From assembly GCA_038883795.1 (NCBI GenBank), contig JAVZLK010000029.1, positions 1 to 19,724 of the forward strand: a stretch of 19,724 bases of DNA, given 5' to 3'. The position numbers and the translations under genes were made by a program. Shown here in pieces: positions 2,425 to 19,724 of this stretch; the stretch's first letter is position 1, and each line of letters begins with the position of its first letter. The notes below the pieces were generated by a model. The model was given only the letters and a program-made list of their open reading frames with translations. It did no database searches and had not been told where the DNA came from. Origin of the DNA: Candidatus Bathyarchaeia archaeon (GTDB taxonomy: Archaea > Thermoproteota > Bathyarchaeia > Bathyarchaeales > Bathycorpusculaceae).

Positions 2425-2571
2425 ATGCTTGAAAAATGTAAACATGGGGGAGAGCTTCTGGGAGAGCGAAAGGGAGACAAAGGAGTTAACCGCTATTATA
2501 AATGCCTAAAATGCGGATGCATCTTAATACTATCGGAGGACGGAGTTTTATACGAGGTTAGAAAGGGTTAA
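2425..2571 (+). CDS. 48-aa putative zinc-ribbon microprotein (CxH...CxxC)
   Basis: Hand translation gives MLEKCKHGGELLGERKGDKGVNRYYKCLKCGCILILSEDGVLYEVRKG*. An AT-rich TATA-like stretch lies at ~2395-2410. It is below the ORF-track length cut-off. Confidence 0.6.
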   Translation: MLEKCKHGGELLGERKGDKGVNRYYKCLKCGCILILSEDGVLYEVRKG

Positions 2572-3072
2572 ATTTCACGCTTTCCAATGAAGCCAAAGGC
2601 GGTAGTTAACGGTATTCTAAACTACTTAATCAATTTAGGAGGCAAAGTATGTTGATAAACATTAATGAAATTTTGAAAGCTAAGCGATGCAATTGGTGCT
2701 CCAAACTAAACTCTGCATCTTCGGCACAATAATTAGTTAAAAGCAATAAGCCTGTCAAATGAGGATGCAAAAACTGAAAGCATAACAACCTAATTCCTAG
2801 GCGTCATGAATAATCCAAAGCTATTTATTCATCTGTAATCGGCTTATAATGTTGTCCATTCTTATTTTCGCTTTGGAAGCATATTATGCTATGAAGCTCA
2901 TGAGGCAGATAGTATATTCTAAATAAAAATTTCTTCAAGAAAATTCATAGCAACTTCCAAAAATCACGGAATTTTCATTTAAAGTAACCTAAAACAAAAA
3001 GAAAACATAAACAACTGCTCATACCTCTTTTAAAAGCCTAACTTTGATTTTAAAAGTTTAAAACATTATTTC

Positions 3073-4224: not shown

Positions 4225-6283
4225 GAGATCCTCTCTCTCCTTCGAGATTTAATATAGCATTTATTATCCTCTGTTCATCAATTATATAATATTGTTCCAG
4301 GGGGGGACTAAATGGTACGGGAATATAGGGGGCACCCAGTCTAGTAATTGGGGCATCCAAATAACCTAATGCTTTTTCTGCGACGAGCGCCGCTATTTCT
4401 CCTCCAAATCCACCTAATTTTGGAGCCTCGTGTATAATTATGAGTTTACCAGTTTTTTTGACAGATTCGATGATAGTATTCTCATCTAATGGAATTAGAG
4501 TCCGCGGATCAATAACTTCAACGTTTATTCCTCTTTCACTTAAAATATTCGCAGCGAGTAAAGCTTTATGCACCATGTATCCTGTAGCTACAACCGTGAC
4601 ATCCTTCCCTTCTCTTTTTACATCGGCTCTTCCTAAAGCAATTGTATAATCAACAGGTGGAACAGGACCTTTTACATTATATAAAAGTTTATGTTCAAAG
4701 AAAATTACTGGATCTTCATCTCTAATGGCGGATTTTAATAATCCCTTTGCATCAAACGGAGTTGATGGCATAACTATTTTCAGTCCAGGTATGTTAGTAA
4801 ACCAAGCTTCAGGGCTTTGGCTATGATGCATTCCCATCCATCTTCCTGTTACTCCAAAAGGTGCCCTGACAACTATCGGAACAGAAGCATCTCCACCATA
4901 ATTGTATCTCATTTTTGCCGCTGTGTTAACTATATGATCCATCGCTATTGTCAGAAAGTCAGCAAATTGTATTTCGACAATAGTTTTAATTCCCATTAGC
5001 GCACAACCCACAGCTGCGCCCACCATCGCTGATTCTGATATGGGAGTTCCGATTACTCTTTCAGGAAAGATATTGCATAAACCCCTTGTTGGCGGCCACA
5101 AACCTCCTAATGGACCTATGGCGTCCTGCCCTATATCCTCGCCGATTAATATTACGTTCGGATCTCTCGATAGCTCTTCTCGTAACGCTTCATTAAGAGC
5201 CTCGCCCATAGTTAGTAGGCGGGATGAATAGTCTTTTTGAAGTTTAATAAGGACCGTATTATTATCCGGTTCTGAAGTAGGTTTTGTATTGTAGACGTCT
5301 TTTAATGCCTCTTCAGCTTGCGGGAATGGACTGTTTTGGGCAAACTTTACTGCTTCATCGACTATCGCAACAACTCTTTTCAATAGTTCCTCCTTTATTT
5401 GAATTGTAATAATTCCCATTTTCAATAGTCGATTTTCGAATAATACTACTGGATCTTTTTCCATCCATTTTTTAATCTCATTTTCATCTCTTCTCTCAGG
5501 AAGTCTTTCTGAATGCCCTCGAATTCTATATGTCTTACATTCAATCAAAGTAGGTCCTTTGTTATCTTTCGCCCTCTTAACAGCATCTTGGACAACTTTG
5601 TGCACCGCCAAAACGTCATTACCATCTACAACAACACCAGGAAAACCATAAGCAACAGCACGGTCAGCTATATTCTCGATCTTAAAGCTACTTTTGAACG
5701 GCGTCCACATAGCATATTGATTGTTCTCGCATATAAATATTACCGGTAAATCCTTCACCGCCGCTAAGTTTAATCCTTCATGAAAATCTCCTCTATTCGA
5801 AGCGCCATCTCCAAAAAAACATAAAACTACCGAGTCCTTTTTTCGCAGTTTACAAGCTAATGCCACACCAACTGCTATTGGGATCTGCGCACCGACAACT
5901 CCCGTTGTTCCAATAATCCCATATTTATGATCACCCATGTGATGCGAAGTAACCTTTCCTTTTGCAGGACCAGTAGATTTTCCGAATATTCCCGCCATAA
6001 TTATTTTAGGTGGCACTCCACGAACTAAAAAAGCGGGCCTTGTTCTCAACGATGGCACAACATAATCATCCTTAGAAAGTTTATAACAAGCGCCAACCCC
6101 AATCGCCTCTTGACCAATGCAAGAATGCGGGACCTCTATTACCCCAAGCCCCTCCCTATAAAGCATATTAACTTTTTCTTCAAAAACCCGAGCTAAGAGT
6201 AAGTATTGATATATTTCGATTAAATCCCTTTCATCCAAAGAACTCTCGGTCACGTGCACTTTAATTACCTCGTTTGATAGCAA
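4187..6283 (-). CDS. Fused E1 alpha-beta, TPP-dependent 2-oxoacid/acetoin dehydrogenase (start may be GTG at 6259)
   Basis: Alpha half has GQEA, the TPP motif GDGA...ENN and TYRIRGHS. Beta half has GEDIG, TPISE, EIQFADF, HHSQS, DPVIFFEHK and EVIDPRTLIPLD. It is one continuous frame with a linker. An RBS-like GAGGT lies 7 nt before GTG 6259. Confidence 0.95.
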   Translation of the reverse strand: MLSNEVIKVHVTESSLDERDLIEIYQYLLLARVFEEKVNMLYREGLGVIEVPHSCIGQEAIGVGACYKLSKDDYVVPSLRTRPAFLVRGVPPKIIMAGIFGKSTGPAKGKVTSHHMGDHKYGIIGTTGVVGAQIPIAVGVALACKLRKKDSVVLCFFGDGASNRGDFHEGLNLAAVKDLPVIFICENNQYAMWTPFKSSFKIENIADRAVAYGFPGVVVDGNDVLAVHKVVQDAVKRAKDNKGPTLIECKTYRIRGHSERLPERRDENEIKKWMEKDPVVLFENRLLKMGIITIQIKEELLKRVVAIVDEAVKFAQNSPFPQAEEALKDVYNTKPTSEPDNNTVLIKLQKDYSSRLLTMGEALNEALREELSRDPNVILIGEDIGQDAIGPLGGLWPPTRGLCNIFPERVIGTPISESAMVGAAVGCALMGIKTIVEIQFADFLTIAMDHIVNTAAKMRYNYGGDASVPIVVRAPFGVTGRWMGMHHSQSPEAWFTNIPGLKIVMPSTPFDAKGLLKSAIRDEDPVIFFEHKLLYNVKGPVPPVDYTIALGRADVKREGKDVTVVATGYMVHKALLAANILSERGINVEVIDPRTLIPLDENTIIESVKKTGKLIIIHEAPKLGGFGGEIAALVAEKALGYLDAPITRLGAPYIPVPFSPPLEQYYIIDEQRIINAILNLEGERGSHGKTACYHAKAS

Positions 6284-6289
6284 TTAAGT

Positions 6290-6298
6290 AAAAAAAAA
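6290..6298 (-). terminator. Oligo-U (T9) archaeal intrinsic terminator after the binding-protein gene
   Basis: Nine consecutive T on the minus strand, 2 nt after the stop of 6301..7635 and before the E1 gene. Confidence 0.6.
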
Positions 6299-6300
6299 GG

Positions 6301-7635
6301 TTAAGGGATGAGTCTTTCGCTCCAAGCCGGTGCTGGACATACCGGTTCTGCCTCGGCGATCTCAACAGGCCATATCGCTTTAAATTTTAATTTTCCATTT
6401 TCATACAACCACTGCTGTATTGCAAGTTGGTCAATCCCATAGATATTTTGTTGCTTTTCATCAAATTTGTATCCTAAGCCTAACAGATCCGGCCTTTCGC
6501 CTGGTTTTATATCAGTTTGGAGCAAGGCTTCCCTGACCGCATCCGGATCTACAGACTTAGCCCTCTCAATAGCATCAAATAATACCAACATATTTGGTAT
6601 ATGAATGGTTCCATGCACGGGTGTGCATTCACCAAACACTGGGTCAATTCCATACTTCTGTACCCAAAGGTTATTATAATAATCAATGTTAGGTAATTTC
6701 ATTCTTCCTGTGAGGTAAGCACAGCTTACTACATATGCGGCATCATCACCTGCACCTGCAACAAACTCTTGAACACCCATTCCTCCGCCAGACCCTATAA
6801 CCAATTTGAAGTTCACGTCGTTTTCGTGGGCTTCTCTCATTAAAAGGATTGAGTCTGTTACGTATGAAGTCGCTAAAAGGACATCAACTCCGAGGTTTTT
6901 AAGCTTTAAAAGTATTGGTGCTAGCGTCGCGGTGCCCGACGGATAACCCTCAATAGCTACTAAGTTCAATCCATGTTGTTCGCAATACTCTTTCTCAGGT
7001 TTCATTTCGGACATTCCCCATTCAGTGTTCTCATAAACAATAGCTATTTTTATATCGGCTTTGGGCTTTCCAAGTTTTTGCGAAAGGATTGGCAACACAT
7101 ATTGGTCTACAAACAACATCTTCTTTTGAATTAGCATCGATGCCGTTGGGCATGCCCTAATCACGTATTTATATCCTCGCGCAGTTATCGAATCAGCTAC
7201 TGCGGAAAATTCATAGTAGAGGACGTGATTTTTTTCCGCCACTGTCGTAGCAGCATATGACAATGTGCTACCGAAAGTTCCTACAATTATAGGGACTTTT
7301 TCTACAGTGCATAATCGTTCGCATTCACTTACCGCAACATCTGGTTCACTTTTACAATCCGCTACTATGGGAACGACTTTTGCCCCTCCAAGGACTCCTC
7401 CCCGCTCATTAATTAAGTCTATGACCAGCCTGGCAGCCATAAGATTAACCTTGCCAAGCGCTGCAAGGCCTCCAGTTAACGGAAAAAGTAAGCCGATTTT
7501 AACTTCGCTAACTTTCGGTCCCGTGGGTATGGACATATAGTAAGCCGTTGCGGCTACGCATGCAACGATAACGATGACGACTATTATTATTGCATGCATT
7601 TTTGTTATCGCTTTTTTGCAAATCATATAGTGCAC
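6301..7635 (-). CDS. ABC transporter substrate-binding protein, LivJ/K (HAAT) family (likely start ATG 7626)
   Basis: VKIGLLFPLTGGLAALG, INERGGVLGG, ADCKSEP, ITARGYKYVIR and YENTEWG motifs. The N-terminus is KKAITK followed by a hydrophobic helix, like a class III signal peptide. Confidence 0.92.
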   Translation of the reverse strand: MHYMICKKAITKMHAIIIVVIVIVACVAATAYYMSIPTGPKVSEVKIGLLFPLTGGLAALGKVNLMAARLVIDLINERGGVLGGAKVVPIVADCKSEPDVAVSECERLCTVEKVPIIVGTFGSTLSYAATTVAEKNHVLYYEFSAVADSITARGYKYVIRACPTASMLIQKKMLFVDQYVLPILSQKLGKPKADIKIAIVYENTEWGMSEMKPEKEYCEQHGLNLVAIEGYPSGTATLAPILLKLKNLGVDVLLATSYVTDSILLMREAHENDVNFKLVIGSGGGMGVQEFVAGAGDDAAYVVSCAYLTGRMKLPNIDYYNNLWVQKYGIDPVFGECTPVHGTIHIPNMLVLFDAIERAKSVDPDAVREALLQTDIKPGERPDLLGLGYKFDEKQQNIYGIDQLAIQQWLYENGKLKFKAIWPVEIAEAEPVCPAPAWSERLIP

Positions 7636-7675
7636 CCTTCTGTATAGTTTACCCTTTCTTATGGTTTATTCGAAG

Positions 7676-7725
7676 ATTTAAAAACTTTTCTATAATTTCG
7701 GATAACTCAGTTAGATTTTTATATA
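7676..7725. promoter_or_regulatory. Back-to-back archaeal promoters for the binding-protein/E1/E2 unit and the livHMGF unit
   Basis: Minus strand GAAAAGTTTTTAAA (BRE+TATA-like, ~7677-7690) and plus strand TTTTTATATA (7716-7725), within a ~130-nt divergent gap. Confidence 0.55.
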
Positions 7726-7766
7726 GCCTACGTAAATGTAGAAAGTATTGATGGAGGGAAGAAACC

Positions 7767-8636
7767 GTGGACCTCCAATTTATCATTCAAATAACCATAA
7801 ATGGTATTTTAATGGGTGGACTTTATTCCTTAATAAGCACTGGATTAACTTTAATTTTTGGTGTTCTTAAAATAATTAACTTTGCACACGGCGAATTTTT
7901 GATGATAGGTATGTATTTTTATTACTGGATGAACACATTACTCGGAATCCCCTTTTATATACTTTTAATATTAACCCCTGTCTTCTTATTTTTGGTAAGC
8001 ATATTAATATACATAACCACAATTAAACACGTATTAAATACCTCACAATTAAATCAATTGCTTCTGACAGGAGGATTAATGATGGTGTTACAGAATTTGG
8101 CAGTGATGCTGTGGTCTTCCGATTATCGTTCGTGTCCATTTTCGTTTGGCGTATATAAAGTCTGCGGAATAAATATTCCGACCATGCGCCTTTTTGCTTT
8201 TATTCTATCTTTGGCGGCATCATTAACATTCTTTATGTTATTGAAAAAGACAGATGTAGGCAGAGCCATACGAGCTACCGCTGAGAACAAAGAAGCGGCT
8301 TCACTAATTGGGATAAACTCTGAGAAAATCTTTTTGATTACTTTTGGGCTAGGGGCAGCGATGGTGGGAGTAGCATCTGCGCTTGCTGCTCCACTATTTT
8401 GGATTTATCCTACGGTTGGTCAACAATTTGGCTTGTTAGCGTTTGTTATCGTGGTGTTAGGCGGATTAGGCAATTTTTATGGTGCTTTAATGGGTAGCTT
8501 CATAATTGGTTTAGCAGAAGCGTGGGGATCTGTTTTGATCGCTGCGGAGTATCAACAGTTTGTCCCCTTTTGTATATTTGTATTAATTTTAATATTTTTA
8601 CCAGAGGGCATTGCTGGTCTTCGGAGGGTGAAATAG
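7767..8636 (+). CDS. livH: Branched-chain amino acid-type ABC transporter permease
   Basis: GLTLIFGVLKIINFAHGEF, GRAIRATAEN.EAASLIGIN and VVLGGLGN motifs; polytopic membrane protein. Confidence 0.95.
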   Translation: MDLQFIIQITINGILMGGLYSLISTGLTLIFGVLKIINFAHGEFLMIGMYFYYWMNTLLGIPFYILLILTPVFLFLVSILIYITTIKHVLNTSQLNQLLLTGGLMMVLQNLAVMLWSSDYRSCPFSFGVYKVCGINIPTMRLFAFILSLAASLTFFMLLKKTDVGRAIRATAENKEAASLIGINSEKIFLITFGLGAAMVGVASALAAPLFWIYPTVGQQFGLLAFVIVVLGGLGNFYGALMGSFIIGLAEAWGSVLIAAEYQQFVPFCIFVLILIFLPEGIAGLRRVK

Positions 8637-9590
8637 ATGAGAAATATGCACATTACAATTTTATTGACCGTAATAATTGTTAACCTCTTTCTCCTCTTAA
8701 TTCCTGATAAGTATATCATGCATATATTATTCATGACTTTTCTTTATACTTATTTGGGACTAAGTTGGGGAATTTTAACTTACGTAGGTCAATTATCCTT
8801 TGGTCATGCAGCCTTTTTTGCGATCGGAGCATATACCTCAACAATACTCTTTATACGGTTAAATGTTACCCCTTGGATTGGAATGATTTTTGGAGGTTTA
8901 ATAGCAGGTATGCTGGGAATAGCTATAGGATACATAAGCCTTCGTATTAAAGGCGCTTACTTTTCGCTGACGACTATAGCATTTTCACAGATGATAATGT
9001 ATGCTCTTCTCAACCTGAAAGAGATAACTAAGGGACCAGCTGGGATAGTGATACCTTATATTCGAGGGGAAAGCGGGTTCATTTATATGCAATTTGATGG
9101 TAAAGCTCCTTATTGTCTTCTTATATCTAATTTGGCGATATTAACAGCCCTGTTGATATATGGAATTCGAAAAAGTAAAATAGGGTATTATATGAGAGCA
9201 ATTGCAAGCGACGAAGAAACTGCTTCAGGATTAGGAATTAATTCTATTAAGTGGAAAGTGTTTGCCGCATTTCTCAGCTCGTTCTTGACAGCTTTTGGAG
9301 GTACTATTTATGCACAATACGTTCTTTACATAGAACCAATAACCTTGGCTGGGATGAATACTTCCTTTAGGATCATAATTGTATCATTACTTGGTGGTTT
9401 GGATTATATTCTTGGGCCGTTTTTAGGTGCTTTTGCACTTATACCTACCACCGAGTGGTTGCGTTTAATGTTTCTAGCTTCAGGAGGACCTGATCTCTTT
9501 ATATTTGGTATAATTCTAATATTTTTAATTATCCTCAAACCACAAGGATTAGGTTCAATAATTGAAGAGATTAAAAGACGGATTAGGTGA
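8637..9590 (+). CDS. livM: Branched-chain amino acid-type ABC transporter permease
   Basis: GQLSFGHAAFFAIGAY, LRIKGAYFSLTTIAF and GYYMRAIASDEETASGLGIN motifs; abuts livH. Confidence 0.95.
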   Translation: MRNMHITILLTVIIVNLFLLLIPDKYIMHILFMTFLYTYLGLSWGILTYVGQLSFGHAAFFAIGAYTSTILFIRLNVTPWIGMIFGGLIAGMLGIAIGYISLRIKGAYFSLTTIAFSQMIMYALLNLKEITKGPAGIVIPYIRGESGFIYMQFDGKAPYCLLISNLAILTALLIYGIRKSKIGYYMRAIASDEETASGLGINSIKWKVFAAFLSSFLTAFGGTIYAQYVLYIEPITLAGMNTSFRIIIVSLLGGLDYILGPFLGAFALIPTTEWLRLMFLASGGPDLFIFGIILIFLIILKPQGLGSIIEEIKRRIR

Positions 9591-9594
9591 GACT

Positions 9595-10314
9595 ATGATC
9601 CTTGAAGTTCAGGGCGTAAGTAAGGCATTTGGAGGTTTAATTGCAGTCAATAACGTTACTTTTAACGTTAAAGAAAAAGAGATTTTTGGTGTAATAGGAC
9701 CTAATGGTTCTGGGAAAACCACGTTATTCAATCTAATTTCAGGTTTTCTCCGCACTGATTCAGGTAAAATTATATTTAACGGAGAAGAAATTACAAATTT
9801 AAAGGCTAGCACAATTTGTAAAAAAGGAATTTGTAAAACTTTTCAATTACCCAGACCATTTAACAACATGAGTACCATTGATAACGTAATGGTTGGAGCC
9901 CTACTCCGGACAAATAACTTAGAAAAAGCGCGCAACAAGGCTTTAGAAATTATTAAATTCGTCGGACTCGAGAAAAAATCTAATCATAAACCATTTGAAT
10001 TAACTATGGCTGAACGAAAAATCCTTGAATTATCCAGAGCCTTAGCAACGGAGCCACGTGTGCTCCTTCTAGACGAAGTTATGGCAGGCTTGAATCCAAC
10101 AGAAATTGAGGAGATGCTATCACGTATTAAGAAACTAAAGGATCAAGGTATAACTATATTAATGATTGAACATGTTATGAGAGCCGTAATGTCGATCTGT
10201 GATAGGATAATGGTTTTGCATCACGGCGAGAAAATAGCGGAAGGAAAACCCGTTGAAATAGCTGAAAATGAGAAAGTAATTGAGGCGTACTTGGGGGCGA
10301 GATTATTTGCTTAA
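9595..10314 (+). CDS. livG: ABC transporter ATP-binding protein
   Basis: Walker A GPNGSGKTT, Walker B LLLDEVMAGLN, IEH switch and C-terminal VIEAYLG. ATG 9595 is preferred over the track start at 9562. Confidence 0.95.
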   Translation: MILEVQGVSKAFGGLIAVNNVTFNVKEKEIFGVIGPNGSGKTTLFNLISGFLRTDSGKIIFNGEEITNLKASTICKKGICKTFQLPRPFNNMSTIDNVMVGALLRTNNLEKARNKALEIIKFVGLEKKSNHKPFELTMAERKILELSRALATEPRVLLLDEVMAGLNPTEIEEMLSRIKKLKDQGITILMIEHVMRAVMSICDRIMVLHHGEKIAEGKPVEIAENEKVIEAYLGARLFA

Positions 10315-11011
10315 AGTAAAAAACATAAATGTTTTCTATGGGGAACTGCAAGTCCTCTACGATGTATCACTCGACATCGATGAAGGAGAATTTTGTGCGG
10401 TAATTGGTTCTAATGGTGCGGGTAAAACTACATTACTTAAAACCATTAGCGGTCTAATTAAGCCTAAAAATGGTTGTATCGAATTTAATGGGAATAGAAT
10501 AGACAAATCCGGTACCCACAATATTGTTGAACAAGGGATAGCTTTGGTACCTGAAGGAAGAATGCTTTTCTATGACATGAGTGTACTTGAGAATTTGTAT
10601 GTAGGATCTTATTTAAGGAATGCTAGGCAGAAAAGGGAAAGTAGGCTCAAAGAAGTTTTCGAATTATTTCCCATATTAAAAGAACGCAAAAATCAAATTG
10701 CGAGAACACTAAGCGGCGGTGAACAACAAATGTTAGCGATAGCGAGAGCCTTAATGTTAAAGCCCCGTTTGCTTTTAATCGATGAACCATCATGGGGGTT
10801 AGCGCCTTTAATTGTCAAGAGAATATTTGATCTTTTAAAGCACCTGAATGAAATGGGTTTAACAATTATGTTAGTCGAACAAAATGTACACCTAGCCTTA
10901 AAATATGCAGATAGGGTCTATGTACTAGAAAATGGCAAAATCGTATTAGAAGGCAGAAGTGAAGAAATAGCCGAAAAAGAACATATTAGAAAAGCTTATT
11001 TAGGCATTTAA
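10307..11011 (+). CDS. livF: ABC transporter ATP-binding protein
   Basis: GSNGAGKTT, VPEGR, LSGGEQQMLAIARAL, DEPS.GLAP, VEQN and KAYLG motifs. TTG 10307 overlaps the end of livG. Confidence 0.95.
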   Translation: MLKVKNINVFYGELQVLYDVSLDIDEGEFCAVIGSNGAGKTTLLKTISGLIKPKNGCIEFNGNRIDKSGTHNIVEQGIALVPEGRMLFYDMSVLENLYVGSYLRNARQKRESRLKEVFELFPILKERKNQIARTLSGGEQQMLAIARALMLKPRLLLIDEPSWGLAPLIVKRIFDLLKHLNEMGLTIMLVEQNVHLALKYADRVYVLENGKIVLEGRSEEIAEKEHIRKAYLGI

Positions 11012-11035
11012 TTTATTAAACTGAAGGGAATAGTT

Positions 11036-11788
11036 ATGAGTTTAAGGGACAAAGTTGCTTTTATAACTGGAGGGGGTAGGGGAATCGGTCGCGCAATTGC
11101 GTTAACATTTGCAAGGGAGCAAGCTGCATGCGTAATTGGTGATATCGATCTACAAGCCGCCGAGGAGACCAAAAAGGCGACTGAGAATATTGGGGGAAAA
11201 GCGTTAGCCATAAAAGTTGACGTAACAAAAAGCATTGAAGTAAATTCATTAGTTGATATTATTTTAAAAAAATTTGGTAAAATCGATATTCTAATAAATA
11301 ACGTTGGGGGAAGTTTAGGGTTAGAAGGAAAGGCATTTGTGGAAACAAAAGAAGAAGACTGGAATAAAATTATTGATATAAACCTTAAAAGCGTAATAAT
11401 ATGCACAAGAGCTGTTATTAAACATATGATTGAACGGCGGTACGGTAGAATAATCAACATAGCATCTACAGCGGGTTTAATGGGTCGTGTAAGGATGCCT
11501 TTTTACTCGGCAGCAAAGGCTGGAGTAATCGGATTTACAAAAAGCATTGCACGAGAGTTGGCACCCTTTGGGATAACTGTTAACTGCGTCGCGCCAGGGC
11601 TTACTAAGGCCGGTGGATATGAGAGGTTACAAGCTACAGGTTTACTCGATGAAAGCCTTAAAATACCAATGGGTAGACCCCTTGAGCCAAATGAGGTTGC
11701 AGAGCTTGTGGCTTTTTTGGCTTCAGATAAAGCATCTATGATAACTGGTTGCACGTACTGCATAAGTGGAGGGTACTGGTTACACTAA
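11036..11788 (+). CDS. Short-chain dehydrogenase/reductase (classical SDR, FabG-like, probably NAD-preferring)
   Basis: TGGGRGIG, acidic residue at the end of beta-2 (IGDID), NNVG, catalytic S...YSAAK and VNCVAPG. Confidence 0.95.
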   Translation: MSLRDKVAFITGGGRGIGRAIALTFAREQAACVIGDIDLQAAEETKKATENIGGKALAIKVDVTKSIEVNSLVDIILKKFGKIDILINNVGGSLGLEGKAFVETKEEDWNKIIDINLKSVIICTRAVIKHMIERRYGRIINIASTAGLMGRVRMPFYSAAKAGVIGFTKSIARELAPFGITVNCVAPGLTKAGGYERLQATGLLDESLKIPMGRPLEPNEVAELVAFLASDKASMITGCTYCISGGYWLH

Positions 11789-11860
11789 CGATTATGGTTT
11801 GTATGCTTTGCATACAAAATTTGAGTTTAATATTTTTATCGCAAATATGGTTGAAGTTCT

Positions 11861-12757
11861 ATGGAAAAAAGTGAGTACAATTCAACTGAGGATCAATTAT
11901 TGCAAGGTGCTATAGATTTACATATCCATGCGTCTCCTAACGTGATGAAAACTAAAGTTGATGCAATTGAAGCTGCGGTAATGGCGCGTGATGCAGGAAT
12001 GAAGGCAATAGTAATTAAGGATAACTGGTTTACAAGTGCGGGTACAGCTTATCTAGTTAATCGTATAGTATCCGGCGTAGACGTCTTCGGTGGGATCGTA
12101 TTAAATTTTGGTGTAGGAGGATTGAATCCTGATGCTGTTGACACAGCTTTGAAATATGGAAAAGGAGCAAAAATTATCTGGATGCCAACATCATCTTCGA
12201 TGAACCATCTAACTTTTTTTGGAAAAAAAGGAGGACTTTCCATTTTTAAAAATGGAAAAATTACAACTGAGGTCCGGAAGATTTTAGATATGATAGCAGA
12301 AAATAATCTTGTCTTGGCAACGGGTCATCTTTCAGTAAAAGAGCAAAAAACGCTTGTAAAGGCAGCTGTGGAAAGAGGTGTCAAGAAAATCTTGATAAAC
12401 CATCCAGAACTTGAATTGATTGGCATGCCAATTTCCGTTCAAAAGGAACTTGCGGCACTTGGGGCGTTCATGGAATACTGTTTTGTGAATTGCACTCCAG
12501 GCATCACATTACCGATCAAAGCTTACGGTGGAGTACGTTTTAACTATGTTGAACCTTCAAAAATTGCAAAAATGATAAGGGAGATTGGAGCTGAACACTG
12601 CATTATGTCAACGGATCTTGGAAGTTTGCGTACCTCACCAACACCCGTCGATGGGATGAAAATGTTTATTTGCGCTATGTTGGAACTAGGAATAAGTGAA
12701 AGCGAAATTGAGCACATGACTAAAATTAATCCCAGCATTTTATTGTATGGTGAATAG
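11861..12757 (+). CDS. DUF6282-like metal-dependent hydrolase (amidohydrolase/PHP-type TIM barrel)
   Basis: DLHIHASP (HxH), GGIVLN..VGGLNP, WMPT, ATGHLS, INHPE, STDLG and C-terminal NP..LL. Confidence 0.8.
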   Translation: MEKSEYNSTEDQLLQGAIDLHIHASPNVMKTKVDAIEAAVMARDAGMKAIVIKDNWFTSAGTAYLVNRIVSGVDVFGGIVLNFGVGGLNPDAVDTALKYGKGAKIIWMPTSSSMNHLTFFGKKGGLSIFKNGKITTEVRKILDMIAENNLVLATGHLSVKEQKTLVKAAVERGVKKILINHPELELIGMPISVQKELAALGAFMEYCFVNCTPGITLPIKAYGGVRFNYVEPSKIAKMIREIGAEHCIMSTDLGSLRTSPTPVDGMKMFICAMLELGISESEIEHMTKINPSILLYGE

Positions 12758-12771
12758 CGTCTAGTTTTATA

Positions 12772-13944
12772 TTATGAAAGGAGTTTTTCTCTATAGCATT
12801 CCCTGGCTATGATGTGCCTTTGAATTTCCCCGGTTCCTTCGATAATATCATAAATCCTCGCATCACGGTAGTATCTCTCCATATCTGAATCTACATACCC
12901 ATACCCACCAAAAATCTGTATAGCTTCGTTTGTTACTTCTTGAGCAGTTTTAGCAGCGTAAGCTTTTGCAATAGACGCGTATTTTGTGATTATTCTCTCC
13001 TCCTTCGGCTTATTGTCAATCATCCAAGCCGCTTTATATGTTAAAAGCTTAGCAGCTTCGATTTTCATTGCCATTTCGGCTATTTTATGTGTTATCATCT
13101 GAAAATTTCGAAGGGGTTCACCAAACTGTTTTCTTTCGGTTGTATATTTTAATGCCAATTCAAAGGCTTTTTCAGCAATCCCCAGAGCCCTTGCCGCAAC
13201 AGTAGTCCTTGTAAAATCAAGATGAGACATAATTTGATGAAAACCTCTGTTTTCTTGACCTAAGAGATTTTCCAGCGGAACACGAACGTCTACAAACGAT
13301 ATTTCCGCTTGTGGGAGGGCTCTTTGTCCCATTTTGGGTTTAAGAACACGCGCTTCTAATCCTTGTGTATTTTTTTCCACGATTATTTGGCTAATTCCTC
13401 GGTACGGTGGAACTGCTTTAGTGTCTGTTTGACATGCTACTATTATAAATTCTGCAATGTTTCCACAACTTATGAATGTTTTAGTCCCGTTAATCACCCA
13501 ATTATTATCATTTTTTATTGCTGTTGTATTTAAACCAACGGTTCCAGCGTCTGAGCCATGTTCAGGTTCAGTCAACGCCATCGCGCAAACAATATCACCT
13601 TTACAGATTCGCGGAAGATATTTCTCTTTTTGCTCTTCGGTTCCAAAATGTGCAATAAAGGGAGCAAAAGTATATCCTCCTAGCATAGAGCCAAGTGTAG
13701 AATCCGCTTTAAAAAATTCTTCCGCTACAATACATTCTTCCACACATCCAAATCCTTGACCCCCATACTCACGAGGTAGGCACAAACCAATATAACCAAG
13801 CTTTGCAGCCTTGCGATATAACTCCCAGGGAAATTCATATTTTTGGTCGAATTCCCTTCCTTTTTCGGTGGTAAGCTCTTTTTCTGCAAACTCCCTCACT
13901 GCTCTCTGTATTTGCTTTTGTTCCTCTGTAAATTCAAAGTTCAT
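12772..13944 (-). CDS. Acyl-CoA dehydrogenase
   Basis: MNFEFTEEQ start (ATG 13944), ALTEPEHGSD, WVINGTKTFIS, RKQFG, QIFGGYGY and YRDARI..IIEGT.EIQR with the catalytic Glu position present. Confidence 0.96.
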   Translation of the reverse strand: MNFEFTEEQKQIQRAVREFAEKELTTEKGREFDQKYEFPWELYRKAAKLGYIGLCLPREYGGQGFGCVEECIVAEEFFKADSTLGSMLGGYTFAPFIAHFGTEEQKEKYLPRICKGDIVCAMALTEPEHGSDAGTVGLNTTAIKNDNNWVINGTKTFISCGNIAEFIIVACQTDTKAVPPYRGISQIIVEKNTQGLEARVLKPKMGQRALPQAEISFVDVRVPLENLLGQENRGFHQIMSHLDFTRTTVAARALGIAEKAFELALKYTTERKQFGEPLRNFQMITHKIAEMAMKIEAAKLLTYKAAWMIDNKPKEERIITKYASIAKAYAAKTAQEVTNEAIQIFGGYGYVDSDMERYYRDARIYDIIEGTGEIQRHIIARECYREKLLS

Positions 13945-14511
13945 CTCCACCACAGACGGTATTTGAAATTGCGTTTTCTTTAAAAATTTTTCCTTCAAAA
14001 TTTTGCTCTATTTACATTTTGAGTCTTCGTTTATGCGTTCTTGCAAGCCAAAAGATAAGAAGGCATAGTACTAAAAGGGCTGCTGGTGTTGCTAAGTTTG
14101 AGTATGGATAGGGCATAACATTTGCGTATTCGCTTCCTTTACTTGCCCCATGGATTTACTGGACTCGTTCCTTCATTTAAATCAAAAATTGTTGCTAAAA
14201 AGTTCGCAGGTTTTTCGGAAATCTTAATTGTTGATCAAAAACTTTCCCGTTCCGTTAAAATAACGATACCTAAAAATTATCTCTTTTGTATACGCATTAT
14301 AATCAATAAGTTGTCCCAACAAGACCCTTAAAAAATTCGATGCTAAAATGTTTAACTTCAAAACACCGTCACTTTAGATGAACCCGTTTAAATCCCAACC
14401 GTCGAATTCTGCGGATACGGATACAATGACGATGGTGTTATATCCCAAATATTAACAACCTTTCTAACTCAATATAGTTTCCCATGGTTATCTCTCGCCA
14501 TAATATTATAG

Positions 14512-14565
14512 TATAGAAAAGTTTTTATCAACAAAACTCTTATTAATGTTAAGATTAATATTAAG
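14512..14565 (+). promoter_or_regulatory. BRE/TATA promoter plus a tandem 12-mer upstream of the DUF35/thiolase pair
   Basis: TATAGAAAAGTTTTTAT at 14512-14528. ATTAATGTTAAG/ATTAATATTAAG tandem at 14542-14565. RBS GAGGTG at 14565-14570. Confidence 0.5.
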
Positions 14566-14576
14566 AGGTGTTGAAT

Positions 14577-14999
14577 TTGAAAAGGAAAGTTCCAATTATT
14601 GACGAATTGTTTGAGTGGCCTTCTGATAATCCCAGGTTAATAGGCACTAAGTGCCCACTTTGTGGTAGTATACAATTTCCGAAGTCAAGTACTTGTAATA
14701 ATCCAGAATGTAACCATAGTATCCCTCCGGAGAAGTATTTTCTCAGCACTGAGGGCACGTTATATACTTACACAGTCCATGCTTATGGATTAGGTGAACC
14801 GTTTCAATATCATAAAGCGCCGTACATTGTCGGAGCCGTTGAGTTACCTGACGGAATAATTGTGTTAGGGAGGATAAAAGTTTTTGATGAAAAAAGCCTC
14901 AAAATAGGTATGAAGATGAAATTGGAAATAGATAAGTTGTATGAAGATGAAGAAAATGAATACTTAACTTACTTTTTTGTTCCGGTGGTGAATAAGTGA
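14577..14999 (+). CDS. DUF35-family Zn-ribbon/OB-fold protein (thiolase partner)
   Basis: CPLCG..QFP...CNNPEC zinc ribbon, LSTEGTLYTYT, PYIVGAVEL and LKIGMKMKL. TTG 14577 lies 6 nt after GAGGTG. The stop overlaps the thiolase start (GTGA). Confidence 0.92.
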   Translation: MKRKVPIIDELFEWPSDNPRLIGTKCPLCGSIQFPKSSTCNNPECNHSIPPEKYFLSTEGTLYTYTVHAYGLGEPFQYHKAPYIVGAVELPDGIIVLGRIKVFDEKSLKIGMKMKLEIDKLYEDEENEYLTYFFVPVVNK

Positions 15000-16228
15000 A
15001 GGAAAGCGCAATTGCTAGTGTGCAAATAACAGAATGGGGTCCGTCTGGTTCACCATACCCTCTTTTGATAGATACCTTGGCTAATGTCGCGGTAAACGTA
15101 TTAAGAGACGCAAAAATGACTCCAAGTAAGCTTGACGCTATAATTGCAAACACAACAGCCATACCATTTGATAATCCATCTTACATCACCACAAGTGCTC
15201 AACACTTCGCGCATAGACTTGCCGAAAGGATAGGCACAAAAGGTGCGCAATGTATCAATGTATGTGCAGCTTGTGCAAGTGCCTCTATATCTTTTGCGCT
15301 TGCAGACGCCCTTATAAAGACTGGTCAAATAAAAACTGCGCTAGTAGTCGGCATCGATAATTCTCCTAGAGGTTTTTATTTAGCTGCGCAGTCGATCCTT
15401 GATCCTGATCCATATGCGGCTACAATAAAGGTCATGGGCGCAACTAACCCTTCATATTGGGCTATGTGGGCTAGGAGGCGTGCGTATGAAATGGGTGTGT
15501 CTATTGAGAAGATAAAGGAAATTATGGCCATGGTAAAGGAGATCCAGAGTAAATATGGTGCAAGAAACCCGTACGCAAGGTATAAAAAGGAATTTTCGGT
15601 AAAGGAAGTTTTGGCCTCACCAATTGTTTGCGATCCTCTACATTTGTATATGATTTGCGCTACAAGTACCGGCGCAGGGGCAGCTGTTCTCACTAGCATG
15701 GAAAATGCTAAAAAAATTACTAATAAACCAGTGAAAATATTGGCATCAACAGTTGGCGGACCTATATATGGCGAACCAATGCCGCGACTTCGAGTATTTT
15801 CAACGGTAGGTGGTGAAAGAGCCTTAAAACCGTTTACTGAATGGCGCATGCCTATTGAGAAAGCCTATAAAATTGCTGGAATAACAGCTGACGATGTTGA
15901 TATTATTGAATGTCACGATACTAGTTGCTTTCACACTATAAATTGGATAGACCAGATCATGGGATGGGAAAGAGAAGAGACAGATAAACTTATTGAAAAT
16001 AGGCAGATTGGTCATGACGGAATGCTTCCTGTGAATCTTAGTGGTGGGACAGCGTCCTTCGGTGAGGCAGTAATGAGTCAGGCCTTTATCATGATACATG
16101 AACTATTTAAACAACTTCGAGGAGAGGCGGGTGAAAGGCAAGCAGAGAAGGATCTTCGAATAGGTGTCTGCACAGCATACGGAGCCTACGGTGCGTACGG
16201 TTGTATCGTGCTAGGAAAAGAATTTTAA
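14996..16228 (+). CDS. Thiolase-superfamily protein, SCP-x / 'lipid-transfer protein' type
   Basis: AACAS nucleophile motif, NPYARY, VLASPIVCDPL, CATSTGAGA, IECHD, PVNLSGG and QLRGEAGERQ; coupled to DUF35. Confidence 0.92.
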   Translation: MKESAIASVQITEWGPSGSPYPLLIDTLANVAVNVLRDAKMTPSKLDAIIANTTAIPFDNPSYITTSAQHFAHRLAERIGTKGAQCINVCAACASASISFALADALIKTGQIKTALVVGIDNSPRGFYLAAQSILDPDPYAATIKVMGATNPSYWAMWARRRAYEMGVSIEKIKEIMAMVKEIQSKYGARNPYARYKKEFSVKEVLASPIVCDPLHLYMICATSTGAGAAVLTSMENAKKITNKPVKILASTVGGPIYGEPMPRLRVFSTVGGERALKPFTEWRMPIEKAYKIAGITADDVDIIECHDTSCFHTINWIDQIMGWEREETDKLIENRQIGHDGMLPVNLSGGTASFGEAVMSQAFIMIHELFKQLRGEAGERQAEKDLRIGVCTAYGAYGAYGCIVLGKEF

Positions 16229-16241
16229 TAAAAACATTGGG

Positions 16242-17147
16242 TTATTTTTCGGTTAATTTTTGAAATATCGTCCACCCCTCTGCTGTTAAGCTCACCCATT
16301 TATTAAAATCTAAATTTTCAAAGTTGCGATTTACGCGAAGCATAATGCCTATAGGATCTAATGCTCTTAAAAGTTTGATTTCATTTTTTAAAGGAGGTTC
16401 TGTTGTTGTAATAGTTGGTGAAATTTTCAAATCCCATTCAACTAAATTGATGATTTCGTCGATACTTATCCCTGGATGTAAGCTTGCCAAGTACATTTCT
16501 TTTGTTTGATCGTTAAATCTAAAAACCGCTTTGTCTGTAATTACCGCTGCCGGTCCGCCGCCTCTAAGCCCTATTTTCTCTCTGGCTCCTGGACCATTAA
16601 GGTATCCTGGAGACGTTATATAATCCACCCTGGACACAAAGCGCCCTTTTTCCAATTTCATCACTATAACTGTTCTTTTAGCTAATGATGCCATATCATT
16701 TGCACCACCGCTGCCAGGTAGGCGTACAATTGGTTGTGAATAGTTGCCTGTTTCTCCAAAAATCGTAGTAGAGTTTACGTTGCCAAATTTATCTATTTGG
16801 GCACCACCTATAACTGCTAGATCAAAATATCCTCTTTGTAAATCACAAAATATTCTAAACAAGCTTGTTATATATGGAGACTTGTAACCTAAAGCATCAT
16901 CTGCAACTGTGCTACACGCCCCTGGTGGTATTCCACCCACATATCCTCCTTCAAACACTAAAACAGCGTTTGGAGCGTGTGTATGAATTGCTAATAATCC
17001 AGCTGCCATTGGCACACCTATACCAATGAATACTTTTTCTCCATCTCTAATTTCTCTCGCAGCGGCAACGGCCATTAATTCAGAAGGATGATAATCACCA
17101 GAACACGTATTTCCTTTTTTATCTTTGTCAAATTGGTATCTTCGCAA
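16242..17147 (-). CDS. Family I CoA-transferase beta subunit (GctB/CatJ-like)
   Basis: ELMAVAAAREI, FIGIGVP, LVFEGG (catalytic Glu position), GGAQIDKFGNVNST, RLPGSGGAND, VDYITSPG and VITDKAVF. Confidence 0.93.
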   Translation of the reverse strand: MRRYQFDKDKKGNTCSGDYHPSELMAVAAAREIRDGEKVFIGIGVPMAAGLLAIHTHAPNAVLVFEGGYVGGIPPGACSTVADDALGYKSPYITSLFRIFCDLQRGYFDLAVIGGAQIDKFGNVNSTTIFGETGNYSQPIVRLPGSGGANDMASLAKRTVIVMKLEKGRFVSRVDYITSPGYLNGPGAREKIGLRGGGPAAVITDKAVFRFNDQTKEMYLASLHPGISIDEIINLVEWDLKISPTITTTEPPLKNEIKLLRALDPIGIMLRVNRNFENLDFNKWVSLTAEGWTIFQKLTEK

Positions 17148-18045
17148 TTAATCGCTCCATCCTTGAAAGTTTGTATAGTCTCTCCCACCCTAATTTATTA
17201 CAGTATTCGAAATGGTTCTCGCAGCCCAAAATCCACTCGTTTATCCATTTTGTAAAGCCATCATAGGTCCTACTGCTAACGAAATACTTAATACGGAACG
17301 GCAGATCCCCGTAGTAATAACCAAAGCAAAACCATGGGTGACTGCCATAAGGGACTTCAACAACCGCGTCAACACAATAAAAAGGGATAATCGTCATATT
17401 TGGAATCCGTCTAATTTCCTCTTCGGGGACTATTTCTTCACATGTTATTATTGTATGCTTTGAAGCTCTGGCTTTATTCTCATCATTGCCCAAGCCACCC
17501 CATATTTGAGAATTTCCTTTTTTATCCGCCCTTTGTACATGAATTATCGCGACATCTGGGCGAGCGGCTGGAACTAACGCTAGTGGTTCTTTACTATAAG
17601 GATCTTTTACAATTTTGATTTTTTTGTTATATCTTGGAATATCGCTTCCTAGCAATGATTTTACGGGCATAAATGGAATATCTAACGCTCCCGCTAAAAA
17701 TCTTAAACTCATTGCAAAATTCGAATAATCCTCTATCTCTATGCGTTTTGGTATCTCTTGCTCTACCGCTCTTCTGAAGTTCGGAGGCAAGGTGATAAGA
17801 CCTCCATGCCAAGCTATTTCTACTTTATCAATACAACCTGAACCAATGAGCATATCGAGCTGATCAGTTGGGCTATCATCAACAAATATTAAGTTCCTTT
17901 TACGTTGGCGAATTATTTCGTAAGCTGCAGCTTGAGCGTTTCTTCCGCAAAAACCTCCCAGCGTTATCGTGTTTCCATCGCTTACATACCTTCTGATAGC
18001 TTCTTTTAAACTCATAATTTTGTCGTCAGCGTCTTTTTGACCCAA
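17128..18045 (-). CDS. Family I CoA-transferase alpha subunit (GctA/CatI-like)
   Basis: KIMSLKEAI..YVSDG, EIIRQ, RFLAGALDIPFMP, PDVAIIHVQRADKKGN and VDAVVEVPYGSHP. GGAGG lies 8 nt upstream of TTG 18045. Confidence 0.93.
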   Translation of the reverse strand: MGQKDADDKIMSLKEAIRRYVSDGNTITLGGFCGRNAQAAAYEIIRQRKRNLIFVDDSPTDQLDMLIGSGCIDKVEIAWHGGLITLPPNFRRAVEQEIPKRIEIEDYSNFAMSLRFLAGALDIPFMPVKSLLGSDIPRYNKKIKIVKDPYSKEPLALVPAARPDVAIIHVQRADKKGNSQIWGGLGNDENKARASKHTIITCEEIVPEEEIRRIPNMTIIPFYCVDAVVEVPYGSHPWFCFGYYYGDLPFRIKYFVSSRTYDGFTKWINEWILGCENHFEYCNKLGWERLYKLSRMERLIAKIPI

Positions 18046-18258
18046 AACATCTTCCTCCTAGCATTCTTTAGATCATAAAAATGAACTATATAAAATAGAC
18101 TTTTAAAGATTACTAAGCGGCTATATATCTAAAAATTAAAAAATAACCATCTAAAATTAGGAATATACGTTTTGAAGAGCAAAGTAAAAGATAACTGCCG
18201 CCCGGGTTTGCTTTTAGCATCGTAAACGCGTTGTCGAATAAGCAAAACCCAAACCTGC

Positions 18259-18786
18259 CTACCCAACACCAACACAGTTAAACTTTCGTCCTATACCTCG
18301 CGCGCGGTATTTCTCATGCTTTTTGAGGTCTTGTAGTTTCTTCTGATTCTCTCCACGACTAGCCAAAAAAGAAGGTTCTGAAAGCTTAGGAGGCAAGGGA
18401 AGCAATTTTGACCATAAAATGGCGCGGGGTGCGGGATTTGAACCCGCGCGGCCCAAACGGACCACAGGCTTAGCAGGCCTGCCCCCTACCAGGCTAGGGC
18501 AACCCCGCACCTCTGTTTTGTCTTTGGAGCTTTTATCTGTCTGTTTTAGGTCTATGCATGTTCTGTGTATTTTGGTTTTTGGTCTATGTATTAGGTCTTG
18601 TAGTGTCAATCCAACCATTTTAAGTTGTTCTTCCAGATAGTCTTTGCTGATTACATGGTATTGGAATTTTGGTTTGTGTGTCTCTGGATCAATGCCTAGG
18701 TAGTGCCTAACCCTACAATAGTTCTTGGTCAATATCTGTAGAAGACCTAGGTTTCCACAGACTTGACATTTAACCTTCATTTTCAT
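18259..18786 (-). CDS. CxxC protein reading in sense through tRNA-Ser; putative N-terminal fragment, int(N), of a split archaeal integrase
   Basis: The first ~92 codons are protein-like (CQVCGNLGLLQ...YCRVRHY...KPKFQYH), with a purine-rich leader and TTATATA ~50 nt upstream. The frame then enters the tRNA (VRGCPSLVGGRPAKP...). The part beyond the tRNA is probably chance read-through. Confidence 0.6.
   Translation of the reverse strand: MKMKVKCQVCGNLGLLQILTKNYCRVRHYLGIDPETHKPKFQYHVISKDYLEEQLKMVGLTLQDLIHRPKTKIHRTCIDLKQTDKSSKDKTEVRGCPSLVGGRPAKPVVRLGRAGSNPAPRAILWSKLLPLPPKLSEPSFLASRGENQKKLQDLKKHEKYRARGIGRKFNCVGVG
18420..18508 (-). tRNA. tRNA-Ser(GCT), intronless, CCA encoded
   Basis: Sequence GCGGGGTTGCCCTAGCCTGGTAGGGGGCAGGCCTGCTAAGCCTGTGGTCCGTTTGGGCCGCGCGGGTTCAAATCCCGCACCCCGCGCCA. 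Acceptor stem GCGGGGT/ACCCCGC, anticodon arm CAGGC-CTGCTAA-GCCTG, long variable arm, T arm GCGGG-TTCAAAT-CCCGC and G73 discriminator. Confidence 0.97.
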
Positions 18787-19724
18787 TCCTTCCTATTTCC
18801 TATTCATTTTCATTATATTGTTCAAAATAACTGGATATATAAGTATATCTACTCTAGAATTGTCTATTTGTATAGAGATTAGATTAGATAAAGATACAAA
18901 TGGTTCAAAGACTTTCATCCTAGAAAGACAAATGTTTCAATGTCTCAAATTAAGATCATTATTGTCTAGAATACTTTTGGAATACTTTAAAACAATATTG
19001 GGTTGTCTAAATACTTCAATCCTAGTCTATATTAGGAAATTTACATGTCTGAAATGTCTAAAATAGAACTTATTGTATCCAAGTCACCCTAGCATAAAGT
19101 CCTAAAATATGTGCTATAGACAAAGACAAAAACCAGAGTATATAGGGTTTTTTGAAGTTTGTTTTTGTGCTTCTATTCTAGGTTCTTTCATGGATTTTGT
19201 TCTTGTTATTATGGTAGGTCTTGTTTTTGTTCTTTACTCTAGGTTAAATCAAGACTAGAATCCATGGATTTTGTCTTGAATAGGTAAGACTTGACTTCAT
19301 TCTTTTCTAAAACTATACTTCTTTCCTATACTAATATATTGATTCTACTACATTCCTTTATAGAATCCTTGTTTTGGTCTATCATTGAAGGCTTAACCAC
19401 TATGGAAAAATGCCTTAGACCATTAGAACTTTATCCATATAAGCTAGTGACCTATCTACATTTATGGTCTAATCTTGTTCTAATTCTACACCTTATTCTA
19501 GATAGAAAGGAAACAAAAGTAAAAGAAGAGAAAAAAGAAAAGGAGGGTCTAACTAAATCTTATAATGTCTAAAAACTATGTTTTTATAGTGCTATCTATT
19601 TGGCTATGCAGTATCTATCTACTAAAACTATGTCTTATGTTCTCTAATTATGTCTATTGTATTAGGTTGTTTTGAACTATGTCTTTTGAGTGTTTGTCTT
19701 GTCTCTAATCTGTTCTTGTCTAAT
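18509..19724. mobile_element. Edge of a putative integrated element abutting the 5' end of tRNA-Ser
   Basis: Abrupt compositional change exactly at the tRNA boundary (AT-rich, no CG dinucleotide), plus the int(N)-like ORF entering the tRNA. The second att site and int(C) are not in the window. Confidence 0.6.

Follow-up and report, generated by a model that had tools for sequence, protein, structure and literature searches.

The CG-free tract and the tRNA gene at its border

The window analysed here is the whole of a contig of 19,724 nucleotides (JAVZLK010000029.1; contig C29) from the 81-contig, 2.18 Mb assembly of an archaeon of the class Bathyarchaeia (the host assembly, labelled G000; 87% complete, with an estimated contamination of 3.4%). 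Near its right end lies a complete tRNA-Ser(GCT) gene, beyond which a tract without a single CG dinucleotide (CpG) continues to the end of the contig. Since the tRNA gene occupies 18420-18508 on the minus strand, the tract starts at the 5' end of the tRNA. An open reading frame (ORF) that enters the tRNA gene from the tract is predicted to encode part of an integrase. The features are as follows.

18508..19724, no strand: CG-free tract (CG count, inter-CG intervals, GC-matched windows and shuffles)
18509..18786, minus strand: Int(N), predicted N-terminal fragment of a split SSV-type integrase, about 92 codons, CxxC...H...H, no CG (translation and homologues)
18420..18508, minus strand: tRNA-Ser(GCT), complete gene (ARAGORN; Rfam RF00005, 57.6 bits)
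18470..18508, minus strand: putative core of the attachment site (att), the first ~39 nt of the tRNA, holding the last CG at 18506 (analogy with relatives)
18787..19724, no strand: about 0.94 kb without a convincing gene, GC content 0.29, crowded with GTCT(A) words mostly on the plus strand, to the contig end (searches described below)

The window contains 655 CG, the last of which is at 18506-18507 inside the tRNA gene, and there is none in the 1217 nt from 18508 to 19724, where the base composition (187 C and 189 G) leads to an expectation of about 29. From 1 to 18507 the observed/expected ratio (o/e) of CpG is 0.92, and the largest gap between two CG is 192 nt. In 20,000 mononucleotide shuffles of the tract, the count averaged 28.9 CG, the lowest being 11. 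The interval spanning the tract (1219 nt) is the longest of the 72,934 inter-CG intervals in the assembly, the next being 340 nt. Among 6,982 host windows of 1217 nt, the 468 with a GC content of 0.30-0.36 had a median CpG o/e of about 0.8, and the lowest host window clear of the tract had 0.36, so the tract cannot be likened to other AT-rich regions of the host. These results indicate that the absence of CG from 18508-19724 is real and far beyond chance; the part of the tract that codes for Int(N) is likewise without CG. An earlier note on this DNA, made from the letters alone, had described the loss of CG over the last ~1217 nt after a region where CG is common, had put the expectation at a few tens, and had named a ratio like that of AT-rich host regions as the finding that would speak against its view; the computed values agree with the first two points, and the ratio of the tract is unlike that of the AT-rich host regions.

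The same note had remarked on the richness of the tract in TCTA, GTCT and CTAG, and all three words exceed their expectations by count. TCTA occurs 29 times (8.7 expected), CTAG 12 times (3.4 expected, a 3.6-fold excess; o/e 0.46 in the host flank), and GTCT 26 times on the plus strand and 9 times on the minus strand (4.7 expected per strand), and GTCTA 13 times (1.4 expected). The GC dinucleotide is also scarce (14, o/e 0.48), and the o/e of TG, CA, CT and AG are 1.14, 0.87, 1.45 and 1.20, respectively. We also observed that AATT and TTAA are scarce (0.37) and that the plus strand has 491 T and 350 A. GTCT words were considered as a trait of the whole family of related elements described below and were rejected as such, the relatives having 2-14 per kb vs 27 in the first kb of the window element. 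The GTCT(A) excess is peculiar to the window element among those compared. As a guess, these words might be binding sites for a protein of the element.

The tract carries the predicted N-terminal half of a split integrase

The window ORF opens at 18786 on the minus strand and passes 18509 in frame into the tRNA gene, the frame remaining open to 18259. Only its first ~92 codons are conserved, and the remainder is the tRNA read as protein; the open frame from the tRNA to 18259 is read-through and lies outside the integrase. The conserved part aligns (E=2e-8) to the N-terminus of a full-length integrase of 403 amino acids (aa), which is encoded without interruption on an 11.8 kb contig of another genome. 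Among 31 sequences, residues C7, C10 and H28 are invariant and H44 is nearly so. A structure model is confident for residues 1-60, which form four strands and a helix; the fold had no match in the PDB at E<=0.001, and no Pfam family scored above its cut-off for the CxxC...H...H domain. A PSV_ORF131-like Pfam family was considered and rejected (16.5 bits, below the 27-bit cut-off). Judged by its homologues, the tract ORF is predicted to encode the N-terminal fragment, termed Int(N), of a 'suicidal' tyrosine integrase of the SSV type. Suicidal integrases have the attP site within their own gene, and integration splits the gene into int(N) and int(C) (described in passages of PMC8371274).

By this mechanism, the SSV-type integrase of the element would carry attP inside its own gene, and recombination between attP and the first ~39 nt of the tRNA would split that gene. 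The near end would then show Int(N) reading into the tRNA, and the far end would have the catalytic part, Int(C), together with a partial copy of the tRNA, which is not in the assembly.

In three relatives located at tRNA-Ser(GCT) genes (loci L072, L134 and L135), the direct repeats contain the first 32-39 nt of the tRNA and begin at or just before its first nucleotide. By analogy, the crossover would lie within 18470-18508, so that the CG at 18506 would be part of the shared att, and the recombination boundary is probably inside the tRNA (~18470-18508), not at 18508. The att part of the window ORF encodes RGCPSLVGGRPA, the same peptide with which the Int(C) ORF begins in L135, a metagenome relative at tRNA-Ser(GCT). 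After RGCPSLVGGRPA the two sequences diverge, the window continuing into the tRNA and L135 into the integrase. The absence of CG had been taken to mark the element boundary almost to the base; the tract does start at the tRNA, and the boundary itself is placed only to within the shared att of ~39 nt.

The remaining ~0.94 kb (18787-19724) gave little. No stop-free stretch of at least 25 codons in it had a tblastn match in the fetched loci, where Int(N) gave 134, and its two longest ORFs matched neither Pfam nor PHROG. It had no Rfam family and no tandem array. There are nine sigma-70-type promoter words vs 5.0±2.1 in shuffles, counted under a model that is not applicable to archaea. The DNA of the tract had no match in a phage collection or, at E<1e-20, in the 80 metagenome loci described below, and against 41 related genomes gave only a 126-nt match, in Int(N). 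A search of Int(N) against a set of 5.8 billion proteins, comprising longer lengths only and thus weak as evidence, found none at E<=0.001, and the alignments of Int(N) and Int(C) found no relative of either in the viral contigs of IMG/VR. Spacers of clustered regularly interspaced short palindromic repeats (CRISPR) gave only one 19-nt low-complexity match with the tract; the host has one short array, at C30:19203.

On the other side of the tRNA gene, 11861-18045 encodes an acyl-CoA dehydrogenase, a thiolase-like protein, two CoA-transferase subunits and a DUF6282 protein. These are ordinary genes of chromosomal metabolism and support the reading of the left side as host DNA.

Related elements in Bathyarchaeia

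A profile of Int(N) matched 42 of the 401 genomes sampled from the class and 34 of the 103 from the host family, and a metagenome scan yielded 111 confirmed stretches, of which 80 were kept. The elements sit in at least 17 genera. The layout of the window is common among them: a tRNA gene follows the Int(N) match in 22 of the 30 best genome loci, and in 60 of the 80 metagenome loci a tRNA gene lies 230-300 nt past the start of an open frame, none of the frames in the 80 exceeding 147 aa.

Both halves of the integrase can be seen in some of these relatives. In a genome from the same family as the host (G012), the homologous ORF runs into a tRNA-Val gene, a 40-nt copy of the 5' half of this tRNA lies 5.3 kb away, and adjoining the copy is a 212-aa ORF for Int(C) (42.9 bits with PF16795, the archaeal phage integrase family of SSV type; cut-off 27). 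The full-length protein of another genome (G317) scored 25.9 bits with PF16795, just under the cut-off of 27. Of the 60 metagenome loci with a tRNA call, 19 have both element ends on the contig, with repeats of 25-64 nt, element sizes of 3.0-9.8 kb and a whole-element CpG o/e of 0.27-0.61. The tRNA part of the repeats in complete relatives is the first 32-64 nt of the tRNA; the repeats begin at or just before the first base of the tRNA, or span its 3' part when the tRNA is on the opposite strand. In the 20 complete elements (these 19 loci and G012), Int(N) and Int(C) are the sole genes common to all 20, and the other cargo varies. The commonest cargo is a large beta-helix/NosD-like protein, found in seven of the 20, several with dockerin repeats. 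Secreted examples of this protein are at L003:12494-14767 and in L126.

CpG in the elements and in their hosts

The shortage of CpG is shared by these relatives. Element DNA within 3 kb of the junction had a median CpG o/e of 0.37 (n=76; 10th-90th percentile 0.16-0.62) vs 0.91 on the host side (n=37), and pooled non-redundant flanks of loci L063-L142 gave 0.42 for the elements (67 flanks, 166 kb) and 0.91 for the hosts (29 flanks, 64 kb). The depletion is almost blind to context and frame. In the pooled element flanks, all 16 NCGN contexts had values of 0.37-0.50 except CCGG (0.15). In long ORFs of the elements, the CpG o/e at codon positions 1-2, 2-3 and 3-1 was 0.39, 0.43 and 0.49, respectively (0.83-0.91 in the hosts), and in non-coding DNA it was 0.39 vs 0.89 in the hosts. 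At silent positions, CA and TG were at 1.18-1.29 in the relatives vs 1.07-1.13 in the hosts. The GC content was 0.37 in the elements vs 0.44 in the hosts. CCGG is the lowest CG context in the pooled host flanks too (0.52), which hints at a widespread CCGG-specific restriction among these archaea.

A gradient was seen along the elements: the CpG o/e was 0.23 in Int(N) and had risen to 0.53 at 3 kb. The longest CG-free runs in the relatives were 969, 772 and 751 nt, and one contig (G170:C18) had a CpG o/e of 0.14-0.22 over its whole 28.7 kb. This contig (L048 and L058) has three Int(N)-like fragments and cargo of a cellular type, namely a KaiC-like ATPase with V4R, MgtE, SDR and ArsR-like regulators, and it looks to be made up of CpG-poor elements in an array. 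In the one CpG-poorer genus examined, element contigs had 0.14-0.23 vs 0.65-0.80 on the other contigs.

As controls, we examined related DNA that might share the property for other reasons. An AT-rich island of the host (GC content 0.32-0.36) with a related integrase had a CpG o/e of 0.52-1.14, mostly 0.7-1.1; an Int(C) fragment at the start of host contig C7 had about 0.9; and SSV1 had 1.02. Thus, low GC content, mobility or a suicidal integrase alone is insufficient to account for the depletion. The island (G000:C2:159000-165000) adjoins the aEF-2 gene, and its 375-aa integrase belongs to the same catalytic family with a different N-terminus.

CpG suppression is therefore common to the element lineage and independent of the host, with its greatest effect on the integrase core and a weaker one on the cargo: among some 70 non-redundant elements, drawn from many genera, CpG stands at ~40% of expectation, irrespective of context and frame, vs ~90% in their hosts. 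Of the members seen, that of the window is the most depleted, and the part of it in view is where depletion is greatest; it stands at one end of a continuum and is not singular.

The far end and the identity of the element

The far end of the window element, with Int(C) and the second att, was absent from the host assembly. No other CG-poor stretch was present there (the next CG-free run being 340 nt), and no other 2-kb window had a CpG o/e below 0.50; with no other CG-poor piece in the assembly, the far end was not located. The assembly has 26 matches to PF00589 and five to PF16795. Two regions that matched the Int(C) profile, C7:4-534 and C2:164156-164983, were considered as the far end and rejected because of their normal CpG and different att/tRNA contexts; they are parts of other elements. 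The window shows one att copy only, and the other three copies of its tRNA in the assembly are complete and lie beside other integrases. The absence of CG had been suggested as a means of finding the far end and related elements; the relatives were indeed found, through the integrase fragment and not through the lack of CG, while the far end is missing.

Taken together, these results make it likely that a small mobile element lies at tRNA-Ser(GCT) in the genome of a hot-spring Bathyarchaeia archaeon, that the tract is its arm on the integrase side, and that the lack of CG in the tract is the extreme of a suppression found throughout the element lineage and not in the hosts. The earlier suggestions that the tract is foreign, as the end of an integrated mobile element, and that it evolved under a regime different from that of the host gain support, the former from the ORF running into the tRNA, the matching att peptide and the relatives with repeats, and the latter from the CpG-poor element sides and undepleted host sides of the family.

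The junction in a public metagenome

One public run of a hot-springs metagenome (run X1) contains the tract. In its contigs, the host contig (depth 30) ends inside the tRNA, and a contig of 437 nt joins 28 nt of the 5' end of the tRNA to 409 nt of the tract. The tract contigs have depths of 16-63 and represent at least two variants, one of which, at 29.9, matches the host depth, and one contig extends 604 nt past the end of the window. No contig in the Logan data had at least 31 letters on both sides of 18508. A further contig of X1 matches the tRNA to ~18510 and then continues into a different, T/G-rich, CG-free sequence. From this additional continuation, we infer that the community contains three or more related elements that use this end of the tRNA. 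Among the 23 single-letter variants of the tract in the sample, none creates a CG, which is estimated to happen by chance in about one case in five.

Complete tRNA-Ser(GCT) genes in the host assembly are at C29:18420-18508, C4:~7380-7446, C19:~14420-14486 and C59:~7328-7400, two with a different variable loop, and each of the four has a different integrase gene on its 5' side, suggesting either a hot spot with tandem elements or a bin of mixed strains.

Possible causes of the CpG loss

The earlier note had offered two causes, selection against CG-containing restriction or defence targets and long-term CpG methylation with deamination. No match to the C5-methylase family PF00145 was found in the host assembly, and in the host family this domain occurs in 10 of 101 genomes. 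Neither the host nor the elements thus supplied the C5 methyltransferase that had been proposed as a check, the 20 complete elements having no shared gene besides the integrase. Because there is no C5 methylase and the host is undepleted, the data argue against CpG methylation by the host, and the second of the proposed causes is weakened in this form. The first is plausible, since the host is loaded with N4/N6 methylases (15 matches to PF01555 and 14 to PF02384) and with putative type IIG-like enzymes, as the long fused proteins appear to be: many of the matches are in open frames of ~960-1260 aa. The methylase genes are often near integrases (C73:1245-1946, C38:3367-4011, C41:5648-6541, C19:19302-20159 and C4:11440-12726). 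McrBC had no match in the host assembly. The low CCGG in the hosts also (0.52) is in favour of a defence origin. We regard long-term selection on a transferring element against CG-containing targets of host defence as the likeliest cause, although we put it forward tentatively, at somewhat less than even chances. Restriction-site avoidance in its classical, simple form does not account for the pattern: with all 16 NCGN contexts about evenly depleted, avoidance of a few palindromic sites is insufficient, and only CCGG stands out (0.15).

Several observations weigh against the reading of the tract as an integrated element shaped by such selection. The contigs of X1 break in the tRNA, the tract-bearing one has only 28 nt of it, and the 89-nt tRNA at the junction occurs four times in the metagenome-assembled genome, so the linkage of the tract to the flank seen in the window is not independently confirmed; its link to a tRNA-Ser 5' end is solid. 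Since the far end was not found, the split-integrase model for the window depends on one predicted half and on the relatives. Two integrases of the wider family in the host (C2 and C7) are not CpG-depleted. The loci are mutually related, and among them are repeats of one element from different samples; the counts given above thus overstate their independence. As to the cause, the uniform depletion over NCGN is unlike the avoidance of a few sites, the excess of CA/TG at silent sites in the relatives fits a transition-driven mutational loss equally well, and we know of no prokaryotic system that reads the bare dinucleotide CG. Composition alone cannot separate selection from a CpG-directed mutation acting on the element only.

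Such a mutational process is the strongest competitor of selection, and we consider it somewhat less likely. CpG would have been eroded on the element only, for example by CG methylation and deamination or by a deaminase of the host or of a helper acting on an episomal or single-stranded form. The depletion is even over NCGN contexts, codon positions and non-coding DNA, which a process blind to context would produce, it extends to diverse 'cellular' cargo genes (G170:C18, ~0.2 over 28.7 kb), and the silent positions of the elements have the excess of CA and TG (1.18-1.29 vs 1.07-1.13) that transitions would leave. In the window tract itself, however, there is no excess of CA (0.87) and just a slight one of TG (1.14), the raised dinucleotides being CT (1.45) and AG (1.20) instead. 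In addition, the host has no PF00145 and few genomes of its family have one (10 of 101), a methylase common to all is not to be expected in elements of such small size and variable content, and host DNA in the same cells is undepleted.

Less probable again is a signature inherited with the lineage or imposed by structure, for example by DNA mechanics (flexibility, supercoiling or chromatin binding) or by descent from a CpG-poor ancestral host. A connection of CpG under-representation with low GC content and DNA mechanics has been proposed for bacteria (in a passage of PMC11282364), the elements are AT-richer than their hosts (0.37 vs 0.44), and the depletion peaks in the conserved core, as it would for an old trait of the lineage. 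Against this, GC-matched host DNA has a CpG o/e of ~0.8, and the AT-rich island with a related integrase is undepleted. The elements are spread over at least 17 host genera with sampled flanks at ~0.9 and use the hosts' own tRNA genes as att sites, and even in the CpG-poorer genus the other contigs (0.65-0.80) differ from the element contigs (0.14-0.23).

A more specific and quite speculative form of the selective reading is that Bathyarchaeia, or the life cycle of the element, impose a pressure that reads bare CG on incoming DNA, that is, an archaeal discrimination of non-self by CpG, which this integrase family would have met by shedding CG, entirely so in the part of the window element that can be seen. 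If true, this would be a defence with a two-base target or a DNA-editing activity of a new kind. More generally, if selection causes the CpG loss, it points to an unrecognised defence specificity, and if mutation causes it, to a CpG-directed editing or modification process on foreign DNA.

A different kind of alternative, which we think improbable, is that the window is a chimera at the tRNA, the tract coming from an episome or from a tRNA-Ser element of another strain or organism and being joined through the shared tRNA. The earlier note had itself mentioned a mis-assembly at this point. The four complete copies of tRNA-Ser(GCT), which lie on separate contigs and each have a different integrase beside them, the breaks of the X1 contigs in the tRNA, the presence of at least two tract variants and of another CG-poor continuation, and the estimated contamination of 3.4% would all allow such a join. 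On the other hand, the depth of the host contig (30) equals that of one tract variant (29.9), an X1 contig spans 28 nt of the tRNA 5' end and 409 nt of the tract, and the same layout of Int(N) reading into a tRNA gene is seen in 22 of the 30 genome loci and in 60 of the 80 metagenome loci. Even if the window is chimeric, the tract is still a tRNA-Ser-targeted element, and only its address changes.

Finally, chance, or a side effect of non-coding DNA that is AT-rich and of low complexity, can be dismissed almost entirely: the tract is mostly probably non-coding and one short word ties up about 35 of its 187 C and 189 G, but none of the 20,000 shuffles fell below 11 CG, the coding Int(N) is CG-free also, the probability of zero CG is only ~0.009 even at the lowest-decile o/e of the family (0.16), and the nearest CG-free runs in the relatives reach just 969 and 772 nt.

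Comparison with known elements and systems

Split-integrase elements are a speciality of archaea and have been described mainly from hyperthermophiles, whereas the elements reported here belong to Bathyarchaeia, which are among the most abundant archaeal groups in sediments. The junction of Int(N) with a tRNA gene, together with low CpG, offers a simple marker for finding and delimiting such elements in metagenome bins.

The fusellovirus SSV1 of Sulfolobales is similar in having a PF16795-type tyrosine integrase with attP in its own ORF and an integration into a tRNA gene that gives int(N) and int(C). The 44-nt site of SSV1 is 190-233 nt after the start codon, and the site of the window element would be ~279-317 nt after it. 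SSV1, however, is a virus of 15.5 kb that has genes for structural proteins and replication, and its CpG o/e is 1.02, whereas the Bathyarchaeia elements are 3-10 kb in size and CpG-poor, share the integrase only, have no match in IMG/VR, and mostly use the 5' part of the tRNA as att.

CpG suppression specific to the parasite is a textbook feature of vertebrate viruses, for which the sensors are known. The resemblance to that suppression (ZAP/TLR9) is that the CpG of the parasite is far below that expected from composition at all codon positions. The difference is that the vertebrate host is itself CpG-poor and its sensors are known, while the Bathyarchaeia host is not CpG-poor; to our knowledge, there is no archaeal counterpart of CpG sensing by ZAP or TLR9.

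Among prokaryotes, the genome of Mycoplasma penetrans, with its methylase M.MpeI, also has a strong shortage of CpG (passages of PMC11282364). There the whole genome is depleted and encodes a CpG methylase according to the same passages, whereas here the elements only are depleted and the host has no C5-methylase match. Huangdivirus, a spindle-shaped virus of Bathyarchaeia, differs in that the elements described here show no capsid gene, the comparison being by description and not by sequence; the text of PMC10848311 has neither 'CpG' nor 'dinucleotide', and 'CpG' is absent from a second paper on Bathyarchaeia too. In the same text, Huangdivirus is described with a tyrosine integrase and a predicted polysaccharide lyase, which recall the integrase and the beta-helix/NosD-like protein of seven of the 20 complete elements.

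No report of CpG suppression in archaeal mobile elements, nor of suicidal integrases in Bathyarchaeia, was found in literature searches or in passages of PMC10848311, PMC11697101, PMC11282364, PMC8371274 and PMC13340088, supplements and subscription journals lying outside their scope. A family-wide, host-independent CpG suppression thus appears to be unreported.

Another parallel in the mode of integration is with the pTN3 and pT26-2 elements of Thermococcales, Archaeoglobales and Methanococcales, in which split integrases at tRNA genes are pervasive, with att of ~40-50 bp and a PF16795 catalytic domain (PMC7253208 and passages of PMC8371274); the passages contain nothing on CpG. Those elements are listed for hyperthermophiles, and the word 'Bathyarchaeota' is absent from PMC8371274, whereas the present family is common in Bathyarchaeia and constitutes a large, previously unlisted family of split-integrase elements.

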